A stretch of 64,000 nucleotides of DNA from Gemmatimonadota bacterium (GCA_039589395.1 JBDHHK010000002.1:1337-65336); one strand, 5' to 3'. Shown: positions 4,292 to 23,786, counted from the first letter of the stretch. The notes: generated from the sequence alone by a model not told the origin. Program-made: numbers and translations.

Positions 4292-4723
4292 TCAGCCGTC
4301 TCCTTCTGTTGCTTCTTCCCTTGGCGTGAGTCCGATGACCTGGACACCGGCACCTCTTGCGATGTCCATAACGTCCATCAGATCCTGATACACACGGTTA
4401 CGAGCCGCCTTGATAAACAAAAGCTTTGCAGGACGCTCGTCATAGATCGCGTGAAGCTCCGCATCCAGCGCTGCCCTCGAAACCGGCTCGCTGTTGATGG
4501 CGAGTGAATTGTCCGCCAACATCTCCAACACGATCTGATCGCCAGCACCTTCTTCTGACTGTTCCCTCGTCTCAACAGGAGGTACCTGCGTGTCCATAGC
4601 CTTCCGCTGAAGTGGCACCTGCATCATGAAAATGATGAGGAGCACCAGCAGAATGTCTATCATCGGTACGACATTAGGCTCGTTCTGTACTCCGCCTTCT
4701 TCTCCACCGACTGCCATACCCAT
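4292..4723 (-). CDS. exbD: ExbD/TolR family biopolymer transporter
   Basis: PNVVPMIDILLVLLIIFM TM motif with conserved Asp. Confidence 0.9.
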   Translation of the reverse strand: MGMAVGGEEGGVQNEPNVVPMIDILLVLLIIFMMQVPLQRKAMDTQVPPVETREQSEEGAGDQIVLEMLADNSLAINSEPVSRAALDAELHAIYDERPAKLLFIKAARNRVYQDLMDVMDIARGAGVQVIGLTPREEATEGDG

Positions 4724-4726
4724 GGT

Positions 4727-5236
4727 TTAGTCCCCCCCTCGTCGACTGCCCAGAGCGGCGCCCTCGCTCTGCTCTTCAGCGATATTCGCGAGCACGCGCA
4801 CGCCAGCGACCCGACAGATCTCAACTGCGTCCTGGATCGTGCCATATGGCAGTTCGTTGTGAGCTCTCATATAGAGAATCTTGTCTATCGTACGAGCCGT
4901 GTAGATCCTCGTGAGATAATCTTGAAGCACCGCCTCTTGATCGCAGGCGTCGTCTCCAAACCTGCAGATGACACCGGTTTCGCCGGTACCCGGGTCGAGA
5001 TAATAACGACCCCTCGTATCGATACCCAGTACGACGTCACCGTCTTCTTCTGCACGATTCTCAACTTCTTTGGCATACGGCATCGTTGCCTGCATACCCG
5101 CGGAGATGATTGGCGTCACGATCATGAAGATGATGAGCAACACCAGCATCACGTCGATCATAGGAACAACGTTTGGTCGATTCTCCGCGTTCGACTTTGT
5201 ACTTACTCCACCTACTTCATCAGCCTTGTCAGCCAT
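4727..5236 (-). CDS. exbD: ExbD/TolR family biopolymer transporter (second copy, with insertion)
   Basis: PNVVPMIDVMLVLLIIFMIVTP motif. Confidence 0.9.
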   Translation of the reverse strand: MADKADEVGGVSTKSNAENRPNVVPMIDVMLVLLIIFMIVTPIISAGMQATMPYAKEVENRAEEDGDVVLGIDTRGRYYLDPGTGETGVICRFGDDACDQEAVLQDYLTRIYTARTIDKILYMRAHNELPYGTIQDAVEICRVAGVRVLANIAEEQSEGAALGSRRGGD

Positions 5237-5276
5237 CGGAGCGACCTCCCTCTTTCTTAGGCGTGAAGTGGATCAC

Positions 5277-6017
5277 CTAAGCCTGTGGCTCAGTGGGGGC
5301 CGCCTGCTGTGCCTTGAACTCTTTCGTGAAGATCGAGCGACCAAACTCACTGCCGACGCTCTTGATCAGATAGTCAATGAGTTCTTTCGACGTGTATACG
5401 ATCTCAACCGTGATGTTGTCGATACGTGTCTGGAAATAGTTGTAGAGCCAGACAGCGGGAATCGCTACAGCAAGACCGAAAGCGGTGGTGATCAGCGCCT
5501 CAGCGATACCTGCCGAGATTGCACCCAATCCGCCGGAGCCCGTCAAAGCCATACCCGTGAACGCGTTCACAACACCCATCGTGGTACCCAGAAGACCCAC
5601 AAACGGAGCCGTCGCACCAACCGTCGCGAGGATTCCCATTCCGCGCTTGAGTTCGGACAACACGATCAGACTCTGACGCTCAACAGCACGCTCAGCAGAG
5701 TTGATGTCGCCAGTGGTAACAGTAGCCCTGTCTTTGAGCAGGGGCTTGACCTCGGACAATGCCTCGCCCAGCACGGTGGCGACGGATGATTTCTTCGTGT
5801 TTTCAGCAAGCTCAATCGCATCGTCCAACTGCTCCTCCTGCAGGAACCGCGCAAACTCAGGCGCGAACTTCTTAGTTGCTCTACGGCTGCGAGCAAACCG
5901 ATACCATTTTGAGGCGCCAACCGCCAGCGAAAAGACCGACATGACACCCAACAAGATGATGATGAACCGCGCAAACGCACCCGCCTCATGCCAAAGTTGT
6001 AGTAAGGATACTTCCAT
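5277..6017 (-). CDS. exbB: MotA/TolQ/ExbB proton channel protein
   Basis: LATVGATAPFVGLLGT, GIAEALITTAFGLAVAIPA motifs. Confidence 0.92.
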   Translation of the reverse strand: MEVSLLQLWHEAGAFARFIIILLGVMSVFSLAVGASKWYRFARSRRATKKFAPEFARFLQEEQLDDAIELAENTKKSSVATVLGEALSEVKPLLKDRATVTTGDINSAERAVERQSLIVLSELKRGMGILATVGATAPFVGLLGTTMGVVNAFTGMALTGSGGLGAISAGIAEALITTAFGLAVAIPAVWLYNYFQTRIDNITVEIVYTSKELIDYLIKSVGSEFGRSIFTKEFKAQQAAPTEPQA

Positions 6018-16912: not shown

Positions 16913-17500
16913 TTACGTGCCCCTCACGACTCCAAAGCTCTGCACACGCAGCTCATCTCCGTTCAAGGGCCCAGCAATCCACACCTTTGCGCCAGCCATA
17001 TTTTGCAGTTGAGCAGGCACGGCGGTCAACATGAGCGCATTCGCGCGATCCAGCCACAGTTCGCCGTCGCGAAGCTCCAAAACGCCGAGGTATGCAGGGG
17101 CCGAATTCACAGAGATGACGTCGTACTCGTACACATCGATGGCCTGTTCGGGAATTCCCTGCGGATTTGGAACCTCGCTCCCGGCGATGGACACCTCGAC
17201 CCCTGAAAGCATGCCGAGTTCGTTGTGGAATTTGCCTACGAGTGCTATATGTGAGGCTTCAGCGCCCTCGCCAACACTCAAGACTACTTGTGTCGATGGA
17301 TCGGCGCCAACAACTCGCACGACACCTTCGGCGGTTGCGTTGACAACGTCCGCGCCCTCACTGCCTTCCGCGGCTCGCATTTCCGGATGGGCGTGGTCGG
17401 CATCGTGATCGTGATCATGATCATCTTGCGTTTGTTCGCTGCCATCACCACCGCAGGCCGCCACGGCTAAGCCCAATGCGAGCAGAATCGAGTAACGCAT
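16913..17500 (-). CDS. Hypothetical lipoprotein with His/Asp-rich linker
   Basis: GGAGG RBS, lipobox VAAC, DDHDHDHDADHAH. Confidence 0.7.
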   Translation of the reverse strand: MRYSILLALGLAVAACGGDGSEQTQDDHDHDHDADHAHPEMRAAEGSEGADVVNATAEGVVRVVGADPSTQVVLSVGEGAEASHIALVGKFHNELGMLSGVEVSIAGSEVPNPQGIPEQAIDVYEYDVISVNSAPAYLGVLELRDGELWLDRANALMLTAVPAQLQNMAGAKVWIAGPLNGDELRVQSFGVVRGT

Positions 17501-17508
17501 TGCTCCTC

Positions 17509-20187
17509 CTATTGAACCCGCACGATCCAGAGGATCGGCGTCATTCCCGTACTTGCCAATACATCGTCTCCGCCGTCGCGGACGCGGATTGCGAGCGCGG
17601 GACGCGACCCCGCCGCACTTACGATAGTATACGCGTGACTGCCGCCCCGGACTGAGCGGGAATCGGAAAACGCGCCGAAGGCTCGATCGGCGGGTTCAAG
17701 ACCGGCGGTCGCAGCGACTTCCGATAGTACGTGCGGTAGATCCCAACTCGTCATCGACAACTCGGCTGGCACTCCTGGGGACCAGTCGTCCATATACAAC
17801 ATCGCTCCCCACTGCGCGAACAGCGTGTCGAAGTTCATCTGGGTAACTGCTTCGACATTCGCGACTCCGAGCATTCCTGGGTTGGCGCTGATGATGTCCT
17901 TGTGGAAAGCCGAAGGATCCGCGGAATAGAAACGATCGGTCAGATAGCGTAGCATCGACCAACTCGCTCCGTAAAAGCTCGATTGATCACAGACTCCGAT
18001 GTTTCCTGAGAAGTTACCGAACAGCGTGCAGTCCTCAGGCGCATTTGCTACCTTCGTGCCGCCGTTCCCACCAAAGTAGTACCCCAGCTTCGTCAACCCC
18101 TGCCAGTACCAATAGGGCGGACCAGCTCTGGCGACTGACCCGTCGTAGTTGTTGCCTGCGCTATTTCCAGTATAGGCGTGTCCAACAACCTCCTCCGCGA
18201 ATGTCGCCTGCCCCTCAGCGATCCAGGATGCCGGGAACGTGCCACCGGATAGCAACACAGTCCTGCGGCTGATCTGGATATTGTGTGTGAATTCGTGGGC
18301 GATCAGCACCGGCAGGAAGTTGACAACACTCTGACGCGTGTAGGTACCATCCGGTACATACCCGTAGAAGATCTCGCCTTCGTCGCTGTAGGCACAGCTC
18401 GAACGATCAACCAGGTCTCCGCTGTAAACAAAGCCCGCGGCATCCATGGCGTTCACTTCCTTGGTGAGCACGATGATGATCTTCGAGTTATTGTCGATGT
18501 CGGATGGCACATCAAAGAATGCCGTCGCGAACGGATATATGAAATCATCGAACAAGGTGCTCGCACTGTCGATGTCACCTTGGGTGAGCGGATCCCCTGT
18601 AGGATTGGCATCGTCCGTGTACCAGATTCCTTTCGACCCTACCTTTTGAACCGTGGCTGTGATCTCGGTGAATTCACTGCAACTGGATCCCGGTACGCGG
18701 AACTGGCGCTGGTGTCCGAGTGTGTCCGTCGGTGCCATTGCCGCAGCGGCGAGCGGATTGTCGCTCATCGGCCTGCCGCTCAAGTACCTAATTCCGGGAT
18801 TGTTTGCGGGATCTAAGGCGCGCCGCTCGTAAGCACGGATTTCCGCCTCGCGCGTAGCTTGCCGTTCTCTGAGTGCGGAAAGCTCAGCGTCAAAAGCTGG
18901 TGGCCGCGTGGCCGCTGACCTGCTCGGGCGCGGTACCATCGCCGGCGGTGCAGATGAAACACCCGCTACACTCGTCATCATGAATGGCACAACCTGCGAC
19001 GGAACCTCTGCAGACGCACCAACGCCGATCAGGTATTCCTCATTAGGCACCGCGGATGCCGCAAATTGAAGACAGAAATCGGCGGGATCGTCGATAATCG
19101 TCTGCTCACCGACCGAGAGTGCCAGTTGCGCCGACATCGGTTCGAGCTTGTGGTCGGCGTAGGTATCATTGAATGCTCCTACCGACACCATCACATCCAC
19201 CAACCGTTCCGGCCGGCAATCGAACGTTGGTACGGTGATATTCATCGAGAATTCATTCGCAACGCTGGTCACCGTCGCCGCCCTGCCATCCACCATTACA
19301 CTGTTGTTTCCGGGGGTGAGGTTAAAGCCAGTTCCCGTGATCGTAGCGGAGGCACCCTCTACCAGTGGATCGGGCGATACGCCGGTCACAGTGAGCGTCG
19401 ACGCGGTTGCCGATAGTGCAATGGGACTGCCAGTCAGTCCGGTGGCACTAGCCTGCGCAGTGTTTGCACCAACTGCGGGGCCCAGCGTCCAGGTGGCTTG
19501 AGCATTGCCGTCCGTACCAGTCGTGTCGGAAGCCGTAATCGAACCGCCCCCTGACAGGACCGAGAAGTCGACCGCCTCTCCGTCGACACCGTTGTCGTAC
19601 TGGTCGGCCACCTTCACAACGATCGGATTGGATAACGGCGTGTTTGGGAAACCACTCTGTGCGTCGCCGGAAACGAGTGTCACGGAGACAGCCACATCAG
19701 CTGTTGCGGTTGCGGTGAAGACCGCCGAGGTGCCGATGCCCGTTACGGACGCGGTTACCTCCTGATCACCCGCGGTCGTCCCGAGTGTCCACACTGTAGT
19801 CGCACGACCGTCGCTGCCCGTTGAGGTACTACTCGGCGTGACGCTCCCACCATCGAATGACTCCGAGAGCGCCGCTGCCGCTCCTGCCATGACGCTCCCA
19901 CTGCTGGATGACACCGCATACGTCACCTCTACTCCCGCCATTGGGTTACCAGATTGGTCATCCACCTGAACAACGAGTTCGTTCGCCAACGCCGTGCCGA
20001 CCGTCGCCGTCTGTCCACCACCACCGGCAGCCACGATCGTGGTGGGAGTAGGTGTGTCTCCTCCATTCCCGTTCCCATTGCCGGGCGTGTTGTCGTCCAG
20101 AGGACACTCGGAGGCAGTTAGAACAACGGCGAACGCCCCGACTGTAATGATGCGAAGCAGTTGATTGCGAGCGGGCAAAGTAGTCAT
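17509..20187 (-). CDS. Paralogous Big/TIG/HExxH zinc peptidase, likely exported
   Basis: Same architecture as 14158-16803; AHEFTH..Q, WIAEGQA; start could be 20220. Confidence 0.75.
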   Translation of the reverse strand: MTTLPARNQLLRIITVGAFAVVLTASECPLDDNTPGNGNGNGGDTPTPTTIVAAGGGGQTATVGTALANELVVQVDDQSGNPMAGVEVTYAVSSSSGSVMAGAAAALSESFDGGSVTPSSTSTGSDGRATTVWTLGTTAGDQEVTASVTGIGTSAVFTATATADVAVSVTLVSGDAQSGFPNTPLSNPIVVKVADQYDNGVDGEAVDFSVLSGGGSITASDTTGTDGNAQATWTLGPAVGANTAQASATGLTGSPIALSATASTLTVTGVSPDPLVEGASATITGTGFNLTPGNNSVMVDGRAATVTSVANEFSMNITVPTFDCRPERLVDVMVSVGAFNDTYADHKLEPMSAQLALSVGEQTIIDDPADFCLQFAASAVPNEEYLIGVGASAEVPSQVVPFMMTSVAGVSSAPPAMVPRPSRSAATRPPAFDAELSALRERQATREAEIRAYERRALDPANNPGIRYLSGRPMSDNPLAAAAMAPTDTLGHQRQFRVPGSSCSEFTEITATVQKVGSKGIWYTDDANPTGDPLTQGDIDSASTLFDDFIYPFATAFFDVPSDIDNNSKIIIVLTKEVNAMDAAGFVYSGDLVDRSSCAYSDEGEIFYGYVPDGTYTRQSVVNFLPVLIAHEFTHNIQISRRTVLLSGGTFPASWIAEGQATFAEEVVGHAYTGNSAGNNYDGSVARAGPPYWYWQGLTKLGYYFGGNGGTKVANAPEDCTLFGNFSGNIGVCDQSSFYGASWSMLRYLTDRFYSADPSAFHKDIISANPGMLGVANVEAVTQMNFDTLFAQWGAMLYMDDWSPGVPAELSMTSWDLPHVLSEVAATAGLEPADRAFGAFSDSRSVRGGSHAYTIVSAAGSRPALAIRVRDGGDDVLASTGMTPILWIVRVQ

Positions 20188-20357
20188 ATAAGTACCGCTT
20201 TGGCTGGTTAGTGTTGCCATAAAGGTATCCTAGACAATAATCGAAACGCAACTACCTAGTATGATTGGCAAAGACCCGTTCCGACCTTACACCACCTCAC
20301 ATTGGGAAGCATAATGCAGACAGCAGCGTGCTTTGGGTTGTCGAACTCCTGGAGGTG

Positions 20358-20864
20358 ATGGCACGGATGAATGGACGGCTATTCGAAATCGGCCTGATCG
20401 TCTCAACAGTGTTCGCCGCTTGCGGTCGCGGTGCACCTGACACTGCAACACCACGAGAAGGCGTTGTTTTGGCAGCTGATAGTACGTCTGAAGTCGTTTC
20501 CGATAGCGGACCTGCGGCCGCGCTTTTGGGTGATTGGGTCTTGCAGGGCGTTCCACCACAGAGGATGCCAGGTCTGCACATCACGCTAACGGTGGACTCG
20601 GTATCGGGCGCTCGATACTTCGGTAGGCTGAGCAATTACTTCTCGGGAAATGTCGGCCAAGATCCACGGGCGTATGAGGCTTACGGCGATTCAGTTAGGG
20701 CAGGCGGAATCGTGTCGTTTTCCCTTCTGAGAGTGGACAGCGACATGCTCGGAATGCAGATGAACGGCAGATTAGCTGTCGACACGATAGCACTAGATAT
20801 ATTCGTGCTCGGTCCAGATACAATCAGCGCCGGCGCGCGCCGATGGATCCTGGTGCGGCGATGA
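20358..20864 (+). CDS. Hypothetical lipoprotein
   Basis: GGAGG RBS; lipobox FAAC; beta-rich mature domain. Confidence 0.55.
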   Translation: MARMNGRLFEIGLIVSTVFAACGRGAPDTATPREGVVLAADSTSEVVSDSGPAAALLGDWVLQGVPPQRMPGLHITLTVDSVSGARYFGRLSNYFSGNVGQDPRAYEAYGDSVRAGGIVSFSLLRVDSDMLGMQMNGRLAVDTIALDIFVLGPDTISAGARRWILVRR

Positions 20865-20892: not shown

Positions 20893-21279
20893 CTATTGAG
20901 ACAGACGCAACTCGTAACCAGCGGGCGGGCGGATACGACGATCGAGGCCCGAAACCTCGAGGATCTCAACTAGGTAGGCAGCTCTTGCGCCTGGGTCAGA
21001 AACCAAAATCCGCGCCAACGGTCCAGACGTGAGCGATCCGGTCACTACGCAGTACAGGTCGGAATCGCTTACGCGGTACGAGAACGCCTGGCATCCCGGA
21101 CATGTTGCGCTGACCTCCCCAAACTCCCGTGGTGACGGCGTCCGCACCCTGAACAGGATGGCGCCATCCCCGCTACTGGGAGTGGCCAGTTCGATAGAGA
21201 GCTCGCCGGCTGTCGGGCCATCACAGGCTGGCGTCACCAGCGCCAACAGAACCAAAACGAAAAGACCCCTGAACCTCAT
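20893..21279 (-). CDS. Small beta-rich lipoprotein (cohesin-like candidate)
   Basis: Signal ending VTPAC; ATGA overlap with upstream protease; cohesin call is inference. Confidence 0.6.
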   Translation of the reverse strand: MRFRGLFVLVLLALVTPACDGPTAGELSIELATPSSGDGAILFRVRTPSPREFGEVSATCPGCQAFSYRVSDSDLYCVVTGSLTSGPLARILVSDPGARAAYLVEILEVSGLDRRIRPPAGYELRLSQ

Positions 21280-23786
21280 GGGCGCCGCCCCCCTTCACCC
21301 ACACCCGGTTTTTCAACCGAACTCACTATTGCGGGAGATTGGGCTGCCCGGAGCAAAGCTGTCATCGCCTCTTCAGTCACCACTCCGGCTGTAGCTTCCA
21401 CCCAACCGAGGAAATCACCTACATCCAATCCAGAATTCCTGTTGCCGAGTAAGTCGAGGTAAACCAAGTCCTGTTCGCTCAACGGTGTTCCTGCGCCCAC
21501 CAGATGTTCCAGGACTTCCGTGGCTATCAAGCGGGGGGCAAGCACCGAGAGTTCAAGTGTGTCAACGACGGCCTGCGAGCCTGACGAAACGCCGATCTCC
21601 AATGTGAAGTCCCCTGTCTGTTCGGGTAAGCCCGAAACGAGACCACCGGCACTCAAAGCCAAGCCTAAAGGGAATGTTCCCGAGGTCACTCTCCAAACGT
21701 TGGCTCCGACCCCTCCGTTCGCGGTCAGCAGAAAAGAGAAATTGGTACCCATCGTCGCCGATGGAAACGAATCATCCGCAACAACGAGTGGAGCTGCAAA
21801 TCTCGCGTCGAGATTGAACGGATGGGTCATCTGCAACACCAGGGTGTCGCCTGTCGCGGTGGTGTCGGGTCCATGCCAGCCCTCGAACACGTGCCCCACA
21901 GAATCAACTTTCGCCGTCAAGGTCACCACCGAATCAGCCCCAAGGAAAACTCCGTTCAATAGATCCATTGGAGCATCCGGCTGCACCGAGCCGGCGCCCG
22001 AACCCGAGTACGACGCCTTCAACTCGTAATCAGCGGCGACGACAGCAACGATCGTGTCGCCTGTCGATGATGCGGTGAACACATGCGATCTCGGCTGACC
22101 GTTGGACCACGACACCCACTCAAATCGACGACGACCCGCGTCGGCCACCTGCATCGAATCGATTTCGAGCGCGTAGTCACCACCTGCTGTCAGGAACCCG
22201 TCGAAGCGGTTGTACTCGACGCCGTCCAGGCGGAATACTGCATTCGTGTCGGTGGCAGCAATCAACGCGGCCGACTCGAATCCGACCTTGAGCCGAATCG
22301 GTCCAAAGTCGGCAACTTGAGTGATGGAGTCCAATTCGACGAAGGACATCAACCCGCTGTTGGAATAGCTCGACGGTTCGGTGTTCCTCCCGAAAAACCG
22401 GTTGTTCAGGCGACCTGGAAACGGATCGCCGTCATCCCCGCGGTTCGACCCCGACAACAGATCATCGCGACCATCCGCCTGCTCGAGCGCAACAGCATAA
22501 GGGGCGTAGCCATTCACATTGTTTCCGCGCAATCGAGCCAGAGTCGAGTCAACGTGCCAGATGAGCAGCCCTACCTCGTTCAACATCGAATCGGAACCGA
22601 TGCGCTGACGATTCTCCAGCAGGAAATACTCATTCGTGTTTGGAATCGGCAGTACGTACGTTGTGTCCGAAGTGACAACCGGGTTCATCGTGAGTGTGGC
22701 ATCGCGCTCGATCAACACCTCTGTCACCCATCCCAGCTGTCCCTTTGAGAACGCGTTGAGGTGCGTCGGCCGATAAGCCGTCTGTTGGCTGCCGGAGCCC
22801 ATGAGCCCCCAACGGCCTATCCCGGAACCATCACCAATGGTGTCATAAAGGTCCGCCAGCCCGAACAGGTGTCCGGTCTCGTGAGCGACCACACCCATTG
22901 CCTGCGGCTCACCGCTCGTGCAGCCGGCGTCGCCACCCTGCCCTCCCTGAACGATGTAGTCGCGAAGCTTCACGAAGTCGCCCGTTGCCACCGAGAGATC
23001 ATTGGTAGGGTACGGGCCGGCGAAAAATCTGTGCGCCCAGATGCTGTTGGCGGCCTCGCCATTCACTGCCTTGCATGAGCCGTCAACCTTTGGGTGGATC
23101 AACACAACGGCGTCGACGAATCCGTCATCATCGCCGCTGTTGGGGTTTCCATCCGGCCCATCGTTGTCAAACTGGCCAAAGTCCACGCTATCGTCCCATA
23201 CTGCAGCAATGTCACGCATCAAGGTACCCACTCCGCTCAGCCCGTTGTTCGAGCCCTCATAGATGGAGTCGGCATCCGGTACGTACGCCCAGTCGTATAC
23301 GGTGCCATATACATTGACCGAGTCGTTCGATACCTCTCTGTAATAGGTGAAGACGCTGTACGGAGGCGCCGGATCCGTACCGTACAGTCGATCACGTAAG
23401 ACGTCGTGAGGAACGGCGGAGGCAATCGCCGCTGAATCGGTGTTCGAGAACAAAATGAGAAAGACCGGCATAAACACATCTCCGGTCATGACTCCATTTT
23501 CACCGTGAGCCGCTTGCGTCAGAAACCTGCCCTCAACTGGCCTGCTGCGTCGACGATTCCTCTCCGACGCTACCCGCAACCCTCGTCTGATCCAACCGTT
23601 GTCCGGCGAGAACCGGAACGCATTGGGATCGGATCGCACCAGCTCATAGAAGCTCGGCGGTGGCGTGGCACCAAATCTACGCCCGAGTTCCTCTACGTCA
23701 GTTTGCGCAAGTAAGGATAAAGGCGCCAGCAAAAATGCCACCAGAAATGTGGCAACGGCGCCTGGACTACTCAGTAGACGGTTCAT
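21276..23786 (-). CDS. M6 family (immune inhibitor A-like) metalloprotease with Ig-like domain and C-terminal dockerin-like module
   Basis: Signal peptide; DFGQFDNDGPDG, IWAH, HETGHLFGLADLY, WGLMGSG, EYFLLENRQ, GLLIWHVD. Confidence 0.88.
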   Translation of the reverse strand: MNRLLSSPGAVATFLVAFLLAPLSLLAQTDVEELGRRFGATPPPSFYELVRSDPNAFRFSPDNGWIRRGLRVASERNRRRSRPVEGRFLTQAAHGENGVMTGDVFMPVFLILFSNTDSAAIASAVPHDVLRDRLYGTDPAPPYSVFTYYREVSNDSVNVYGTVYDWAYVPDADSIYEGSNNGLSGVGTLMRDIAAVWDDSVDFGQFDNDGPDGNPNSGDDDGFVDAVVLIHPKVDGSCKAVNGEAANSIWAHRFFAGPYPTNDLSVATGDFVKLRDYIVQGGQGGDAGCTSGEPQAMGVVAHETGHLFGLADLYDTIGDGSGIGRWGLMGSGSQQTAYRPTHLNAFSKGQLGWVTEVLIERDATLTMNPVVTSDTTYVLPIPNTNEYFLLENRQRIGSDSMLNEVGLLIWHVDSTLARLRGNNVNGYAPYAVALEQADGRDDLLSGSNRGDDGDPFPGRLNNRFFGRNTEPSSYSNSGLMSFVELDSITQVADFGPIRLKVGFESAALIAATDTNAVFRLDGVEYNRFDGFLTAGGDYALEIDSMQVADAGRRRFEWVSWSNGQPRSHVFTASSTGDTIVAVVAADYELKASYSGSGAGSVQPDAPMDLLNGVFLGADSVVTLTAKVDSVGHVFEGWHGPDTTATGDTLVLQMTHPFNLDARFAAPLVVADDSFPSATMGTNFSFLLTANGGVGANVWRVTSGTFPLGLALSAGGLVSGLPEQTGDFTLEIGVSSGSQAVVDTLELSVLAPRLIATEVLEHLVGAGTPLSEQDLVYLDLLGNRNSGLDVGDFLGWVEATAGVVTEEAMTALLRAAQSPAIVSSVEKPGVGEGGRRP

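Follow-up and report, generated by a model that had tools for sequence, protein, structure and literature searches.

Organization of the locus

In a 64,000-nucleotide (nt) stretch of a Gemmatimonadota genome (GCA_039589395.1, JBDHHK010000002.1:1337-65336; hereafter the window, whose positions are used below), two overlapping genes on the minus strand (−) encode an M6 metalloprotease of 836 amino acids (aa) (21276-23786) and a lipoprotein of 128 aa (20893-21279). Predicted folds, a predicted complex, and gene linkage suggest that the C-terminal tail of the protease and the lipoprotein probably work like a dockerin and a cohesin, while sequence methods place neither partner in those families. 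All window features described below lie on the minus strand unless stated otherwise.

The protease gene was defined by its open reading frame (ORF), its translation, and two family matches: Pfam Peptidase_M6 (PF05547; E 7.7e-21, 75 bits against a cut-off of 22) and TIGR03296 (146.4 bits against a cut-off of 110.8). The stretch matched by TIGR03296 is the catalytic domain (residues 143-411; 22554-23360), in whose translation we located the HExxH motif as HETGH (residues 302-306; 22869-22883); domain model and motif together place the protein in the M6 family. Its translation begins with a signal-peptide-like leader (residues 1-27; 23706-23786), and the enzyme looks both active and secreted. An immunoglobulin (Ig) domain of the He_PIG type (residues 666-744; 21555-21791) stands directly before the tail; its match to PF05345 is weak (E 1.6e-4; 22.5 bits, just below the cut-off of 24), and homologs have PF05345. 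Next comes the candidate dockerin-like module of three helices (residues 748-801; 21384-21545), delimited by the helices of an AlphaFold2 (AF2) model, structure matches, conservation, and the predicted interface. A C-terminal extension (residues 802-836; 21279-21383), composed of a fourth helix and then a low-confidence end, completes the protein and is absent from short paralogs. An earlier interpretation made from the DNA alone (the sequence-only reading) had the protease end in a tail peptide at about 21397-21530. The peptide it quoted corresponds to residues 755-796 (about 21399-21524), close to that position, but it is not the end of the protease: 40 residues (797-836) come after it.

The final codons of the extension contain the ribosome-binding site of the next gene, GAAGGGGGG just upstream of the ATG, and the two genes overlap as ATGA (21276-21279), with the protease TGA at 21276-21278 and the lipoprotein ATG at 21277-21279. 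This overlap, 4 nt long, was correctly described in the sequence-only reading, and 19 of 20 related loci have it too. To judge from the sequence, it would couple translation of the two genes and may help match the amounts of both proteins. Since the upstream neighbor is divergent and the downstream neighbor convergent, the transcription unit looks like two genes.

The lipoprotein gene was defined by its ORF, its AF2 model, and fold matches. Its signal peptide (21223-21279) consists of a hydrophobic leader ending at Cys19, with Asp20 next. The cysteine is invariant in 20 of 20 close homologs and present in 174 of 178 members of the wider family; a signal peptide with a lipobox Cys identifies a bacterial lipoprotein, and the box of the window protein, T-P-A-C, reads as atypical at −3. 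The window protein shares Asp at the position after this Cys (+2) with 70 of 174 family members. In Escherichia coli, Asp at +2 marks lipoproteins for retention in the inner membrane, a rule that may not hold for Gemmatimonadota; the tether could sit in the inner membrane, at the inner face of the outer membrane, or at the cell surface. The mature part (residues 20-128; 20896-21222), bounded by the model strands and structure matches, carries a CPGC motif (residues 60-63; 21091-21102; located by alignment) in the turn before strand 64-69, the fourth strand assigned by DSSP. CPGC is invariant in 20 close loci, but only about one member in two of the wider family has it (each Cys column, 94 of 178; CxxC, 86 of 174). 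At E ≤1e-3, this family yields 976 cluster representatives, with lengths of about 125-145 aa in nearly all cases. Homologs are named at source "hypothetical protein" or "M6 family metalloprotease-like protein," and none carries a precomputed dockerin or cohesin domain annotation.

Predicted folds of the lipoprotein and the protease tail

AF2 models were compared with 48,161 representative chains using VIA-align, and with Foldseek. The lipoprotein was modeled with a mean predicted local distance difference test (pLDDT) score of 89.1, rising to about 95 over the mature part, as an eight-stranded sandwich of the flattened jelly-roll type found in cohesins; the beta-rich character claimed for it in the sequence-only reading is thereby upheld. 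Cohesins account for all 14 chains with Z ≥8 and for all of the top 21 VIA-align rows (Z 10.1 to 7.0), whereas the first noncohesin row has a Z of 6.9. The best matches are 2w1n_A (Z 10.1; root mean square deviation [rmsd] 2.5; 100 residues aligned), 2vo8_A (Z 10.0), and 2xdh_A (Z 9.8); alignments with cohesins cover 95-109 residues at rmsd 2.0-4.2. The Foldseek top 50 is likewise almost all cohesins, with E from 5.8e-3 to 0.17, template modeling (TM) scores up to 0.63, and none at E ≤1e-3. At 109 mature residues, the lipoprotein is shorter than typical cohesins, and the alignments begin about 15-20 residues into them.

The tail, modeled as a 110-aa piece, had a pLDDT of 76.9, with helices at 29-36, 45-54, 63-73, and 79-90 and values below 50 at 97-110. 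Nine dockerins are among its top 28 VIA-align rows, the best being 2ccl_B (Z 3.9; rmsd 2.8; 51 residues aligned of 62). The dockerin rows involve model residues 22-75 and cover 45-54 of the dockerins' 56-87 residues, with Z only 3.9-2.6. Dockerins do rank first by fold, as expected had the tail been a dockerin, the identity assigned to it in the sequence-only reading; the modeled resemblance would count as a lead, strengthened only by the partner being the cohesin.

The tail carries a motif, L..LD..GN.N...D.GDF..W, that varies little or not at all across 20 related loci; in the best 20, its L, LD, GN, D, GDF, and W never change. The motif includes a single 12-residue loop of the EF-hand/dockerin type, LGNRNSGLDVGD (residues 780-791; 21414-21449), with invariant G, N, D, G, and D and a near-invariant N. 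EF-hand and dockerin loops have 12 residues with Asp or Asn at positions 1, 3, 5, 9, and 12. LGNRNSGLDVGD fits this pattern without gaps at positions 3, 5, 9, and 12 (N, N, D, and D), so the two-residue insertion that had been postulated for a second loop is unnecessary. At positions 3, 9, and 12, the residues N, D, and D never vary, and at least 90% of homologs have N at position 5; Gly is the usual residue at position 6, position 8 is hydrophobic, and an invariant Asp stands two residues before position 1. The proposal that the first Ca loop is lacking agrees with our finding of only one loop in the tail.

We also considered, and rejected, the tail as a C-terminal sorting signal: no hydrophobic membrane-spanning stretch is seen, the model is a folded three-helix module, and about 35 residues follow this module in the long form.

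Predicted complex

Complex prediction was carried out with the mature lipoprotein and the tail, each with a 20-row alignment, and with one Ca ion included. The interaction prediction score from aligned errors (ipSAE) was 0.75, 0.82, and 0.81 (median, 0.81), compared to 0.04 for the best of three controls; the runs agreed in at least 95% of contacts, and partner pLDDT was at least 69. The pass mark had been reached by 116 of 157 solved complexes and by 2 of 215 mismatched pairs, a calibration that holds only roughly here because our own alignments were supplied and a Ca ligand was included. At the level of prediction, then, the pairing of tail and lipoprotein is borne out.

On the tail (110-aa numbering), the contacts fall in helix 1 (29-39) and in the loop end and helix 3 (55-71). 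Predicted error is lowest at V63, G64, and L67, which belong to the last part of the loop (positions 10 and 11) and to helix 3; helix 1 shares in the contact. Cohesins read type I dockerins at the same elements, helices 1 and 3 with positions 10 and 11 of the loop. On the lipoprotein, the predicted contacts lie on four strands of one sheet, spanning residues 38-46, 64-69, 74-83, and 103-111; the interface list of the complex gives the docking face as residues 39-44, 64-70, 76-81, and 107-116. These four strands may correspond to the cohesin 8-3-6-5 face.

Gene linkage and distribution

Linkage was assessed with profile searches for tail and lipoprotein in 101 genomes of the same bacterial family, two of which, G014 and G068, are unpublished. 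Searching with a single lipoprotein sequence gave matches in 78 of the 101, and in the 20 best loci the lipoprotein gene directly follows a long ORF with the same tail. The tail profile gave 127 matches in 86 genomes and the lipoprotein profile 115 matches in 85: both modules occur in 85 genomes, the tail only in 1, the lipoprotein only in none, and neither in 15. The lipoprotein is encoded directly downstream of 104 of the 127 tails, 9-306 nt from the tail match, and 110 of the 115 lipoprotein matches adjoin a tail gene. Co-occurrence of the two families, which the sequence-only reading implied, is therefore borne out, with adjacency that is nearly obligate.

A second gene order accounts for most of the remaining tails. 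Six have the lipoprotein directly upstream of a short tail-bearing gene by profile search, and one is in a tandem arrangement in which the pairing is ambiguous. The other 16 were left unpaired by profile: for 10, the gene directly upstream encodes a homologous lipoprotein (jackhmmer E ≤3.4e-33); for 1, a long overlapping frame contains a match; 3 are ≤136 nt from the end of a contig; and 2 have none. The upstream type thus totals 16 tails, all in short tail-bearing genes, of which the one scanned for domains is an M6 protease; overall, a lipoprotein gene adjoins about 120 of the 127 tails. Of tail-bearing frames of 535-705 aa, 15 of 16 go with the upstream type. The upstream and downstream lipoproteins are homologous (hhalign probability 98.7%, E 3.8e-16; the upstream-type alignment was built from 7 of 14 loci). 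The window's own genome contains such a second pair (contig C28:355-2528): a 539-aa M6 protease (TIGR03296, 135.9 bits) stops immediately behind the loop-helix segment, and the gene directly upstream specifies a diverged lipoprotein that lacks the CxGC motif.

One tail-bearing frame, of 676 aa (L151; contig C12 of genome G091), has upstream of it a lipoprotein that resembles a cupredoxin by eye and is not the usual partner.

Beyond the family, a tail-motif scan of 185,579 species genomes listed 78 loci, all of them in Gemmatimonadota. In a phylum sample of 151 genomes (including the unpublished G138), the lipoprotein was found in 67 and the tail in 72. Both modules followed one pattern by family: for example, lipoprotein and tail occurred in 54 and 56 of 71 genomes in that of the window, in 8 and 8 of 16 in another, and in 0 and 0 of 13 in a third.

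Fused forms and other cargo

In two other families of the class, all five loci retrieved (from four genomes) join the tail to the lipoprotein domain in one frame uninterrupted by stop codons: L137:1591-7818, L138:1832-7897, L140:2786-6598, and L139:8498-12505 and 4633-5784. Frames of 1271-2076 aa carry fn3, Calx-beta, Cadherin-like, and LapA domains upstream and have no peptidase Pfam match; one frame, of 384 aa, has no Pfam match at all. The fused lipoprotein part retains an Arg-rich, hydrophobic, Cys-bearing leader, which is now an internal signal-like segment. A plausible internal start codon is present in only 2 of the 5 frames; 4 of the 5 have two Cys residues after the tail helix. Two other candidates were rejected: P0045 (949 aa), examined as a protease-lipoprotein fusion, has an Arg-rich intervening stretch and an unreadable tail and Ig domain and looks like a frame error, and P0129 (4047 aa, 18 short repeat matches) is a repeat artifact.

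That tail and lipoprotein can be fused, and can follow other cargo, speaks for docking rather than inhibition. Docking "for proteolysis," as the sequence-only reading put it, is too narrow, because the same cassette stands behind nonprotease cargo elsewhere. Small beta-rich partners are encoded beside several secreted proteases: AprI/Inh with serralysins, emfourin with protealysin, and staphostatins with staphopains. Like them, the lipoprotein is a small beta-rich exported protein beside, and apparently cotranslated with, a secreted metalloprotease, and it might instead be a dedicated inhibitor, immunity protein, or chaperone acting on the M6 catalytic domain. We regard such a role as very improbable. 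A partner in an inhibitor pair would track the catalytic domain, whereas this lipoprotein tracks the tail, not the peptidase, and accompanies nonpeptidase cargo at 5 of 5 other-family loci; its cohesin-like fold differs from the inhibitor folds just listed, and the predicted contact is on the tail.

The fused forms also bear on what the binding would be for. Rather than a static tether, it might serve export, sorting, maturation, or a retention latch until release, for example along an outer-membrane route. The folds and the predicted complex would support binding of this kind equally well, Asp at +2 in the window protein and 70 of 174 relatives is compatible with it, and the internal signal-like segment of the fused forms hints at unusual biogenesis. 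Against it, no conserved transport component stands beside the pair in the window, where the flanking genes are divergent or convergent, and the closest structural relatives are single-cohesin anchors; we think it unlikely.

Relationship to canonical cohesins and dockerins

Membership of the Pfam Cohesin and Dockerin families, unlike the fold of the lipoprotein, finds no backing in sequence comparison, either in Pfam scans or with hhalign. None of 21 tails matched Pfam Dockerin at E ≤10, and Pfam Cohesin had no match at E ≤10 anywhere in the window's genome, where Dockerin_1 has three weak matches, under the cut-off, at other places. At other loci of the 101 related genomes, canonical modules do occur (Pfam Cohesin in 8, Dockerin in 9). 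Three canonical cohesins and one dockerin are clustered on contig C1 of genome G031, at about 458.7-460.3 kb (L164, L169, L170, and L175); therefore, true cohesin and dockerin modules coexist with the cryptic pair in the same bacterial family. The nearest named cluster in the ESM Atlas is "Cohesin domain-containing protein" at 0.83, which is below the counting level and a lead only.

Several results weigh against cohesin-dockerin anchoring. Pfam Cohesin (PF00963) and Dockerin_1 (PF00404) match neither window protein at E ≤1. With hhalign, the two lipoprotein alignments reached probabilities of only 0.7% and 1.0% against 10 canonical cohesins of the same bacterial family, and the tail reached 0.2% against 14 canonical dockerins; these profiles are small, and a distant cohesin relationship could escape them. 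A profile search of the Protein Data Bank (PDB) gave no match for the lipoprotein alignment and, for the tail, no cohesin or dockerin but a single weak match to an S-layer protein (E 0.14), on the Ig-like part. The fold match of the tail is itself weak, with no VIA-align row at Z ≥5 and nothing below E 1.9 in Foldseek. Its loop has L, V, I, Q, or Y at position 1 across homologs, Leu in the window protein, and not Asp; it is, moreover, the only loop, since a linker from the Ig domain, with no acidic loop, precedes helix 1, so the two-segment architecture of dockerins is missing. Two of the 127 tails (L148 and L151) have no such lipoprotein within the fetched stretch, and gene adjacency alone is weak evidence of binding. 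The complex score may partly reflect memory of solved cohesin-dockerin complexes. Finally, the predicted interface is not more conserved than the rest (2.12 versus 1.98 bits; permutation p, 0.24), and covariation over 88 unique pairs (effective number [Neff], 82) shows no interface enrichment (p, 0.40; 5 of the top 50 versus 3.05 expected). The covariation result is uninformative either way because there are too few sequences.

These points could be taken to mean that the two proteins do not bind directly at all: the genes would be cotranscribed for another reason, the fold resemblance would be generic, and the complex score would be a false pass, as it was for 2 of 215 mismatched pairs. The missing sequence homology, the weak tail match, and the null interface tests all speak for this view, which we nevertheless find improbable. 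Each partner independently ranks one half of a known complex first among the 48,161 chains; the linkage is nearly perfect, holds in two gene orders, and extends to fusion in one frame; and all three controls scored ≤0.04.

Proposed mechanism

A plug-and-socket anchor formed by the protease tail and the lipoprotein is the best-supported explanation, and probably the right one. The N-terminal signal peptide would export the M6 protease, whose C-terminal three-helix module, with one EF-hand-type loop, would act as a dockerin does and plug into one sheet of the small cohesin-like beta-sandwich. The lipid anchor at Cys19 would then hold the protease, one-to-one, at a membrane of this double-membraned bacterium. 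We infer both the binding of tail to lipoprotein and its calcium dependence. Our verdict is that the pair is probably a new, sequence-cryptic form of cohesin-dockerin anchoring. The lipoprotein anchor tethering a protease, as first proposed from the sequence, is largely supported by predicted folds, complex, and linkage, although neither protein belongs to the known families by sequence; "cellulosome-like" overstates the case, as this is a one-to-one pair of cargo and anchor with no multienzyme scaffold.

More tentatively, the observations might be joined into a phylum-wide docking system of Gemmatimonadota that sequence methods have missed, an extension that we consider possible but doubtful. 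A one-loop plug would be carried by diverse exported cargo (M6 proteases and giant fn3/Calx-beta/cadherin-like proteins), each with its own lipid-anchored, cohesin-fold socket; there would be cognate types, with the socket downstream of long proteases and upstream of short ones, and in some families plug and socket would be fused around an internal lipoprotein signal.

Neighboring genes

Adjoining the pair, the window has a candidate second pair of a large exported metalloprotease and a small lipoprotein (16913-20220, −). The larger ORF specifies a protein of 903 aa in which Ig-like domains of the Big_1 and TIG types accompany an HExxH region and weak matches to MXAN_6640 and DUF2268; 9 nt after it lies a 195-aa lipoprotein-like ORF with a His/Asp-rich N terminus. 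On the opposite strand (20265-20864, +), a 199-aa ORF with a lipobox-like VFAAC had no family match in library scans. It is convergent with the cohesin-like lipoprotein gene, their ends being about 29 nt apart.

Comparison with known systems and significance

The nearest parallels are the OlpA and OlpC complexes of Clostridium thermocellum (3ul4 and 4dh2), in which one cohesin-fold module fixed to the envelope likewise takes one dockerin-bearing protein. Both were matched by the sandwich (Z 8.9 and 8.4) and by the tail (Z 2.7 and 3.4), and the surface by which type I dockerins are read (helix 1, helix 3, and loop residues 10 and 11) is the one predicted to make contact here. The anchors differ: OlpA and OlpC use SLH-type wall-binding repeats in a Gram-positive cell, whereas here an N-terminal lipid is carried by a 109-aa single-domain protein in a double-membraned phylum. 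The plug here has one loop instead of two and lacks the position-1 Asp, there is no detectable sequence similarity, and the present cargo is a protease, whose gene appears to be translationally coupled to that of the anchor.

The best structural matches, modules of C. perfringens glycoside hydrolases (2w1n, 2vo8, 2jh2, and 2o4e) and an Archaeoglobus fulgidus cohesin (2xdh), with Z of 10.1, 10.0, and 9.8 at the top, come from the joining of secreted proteins outside cellulose degradation. To judge from their entry titles, the C. perfringens cohesins are modules inside large enzymes rather than lipoproteins, and they and the A. fulgidus cohesin are recognizable by sequence, whereas the present lipoprotein family is not.

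In the uncultured Cloacimonadota, peptidases bearing signal peptides have C-terminal dockerins, from which the authors infer cohesin docking for polypeptide degradation; the partner is a 3,755-aa multicohesin scaffoldin with a C-terminal sorting domain (PMC8542988). That system resembles the present one in that exported peptidases of a double-membraned uncultured lineage carry a docking tail, but its domains are detectable with InterPro (PMC8542988), while here a single cryptic cohesin-like lipoprotein serves each cargo. Among the matches listed by our full-text searches, none describes this cassette; they concern cellulosomes and sequence-detectable modules.

If the fused plug and socket are real, they would imply an undescribed biogenesis, in which an internal cut by signal peptidase II frees cargo and anchor together, or a self-docking protein; the single-frame forms raise a testable question of what becomes of a lipoprotein signal that lies within a protein. 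If the binding is real, cohesin-dockerin joining would extend beyond the sequence-recognizable modules of cellulosomes to a cryptic minimal cassette, one plug and one lipid-anchored socket, in a phylum widespread in soil and water. About 976 clusters of "hypothetical" lipoproteins would then gain a name and a testable role, and protein display would gain small orthogonal plug-and-socket pairs. For the Gemmatimonadota themselves, such binding would explain how secreted proteases and large adhesin-like proteins are retained at the envelope.

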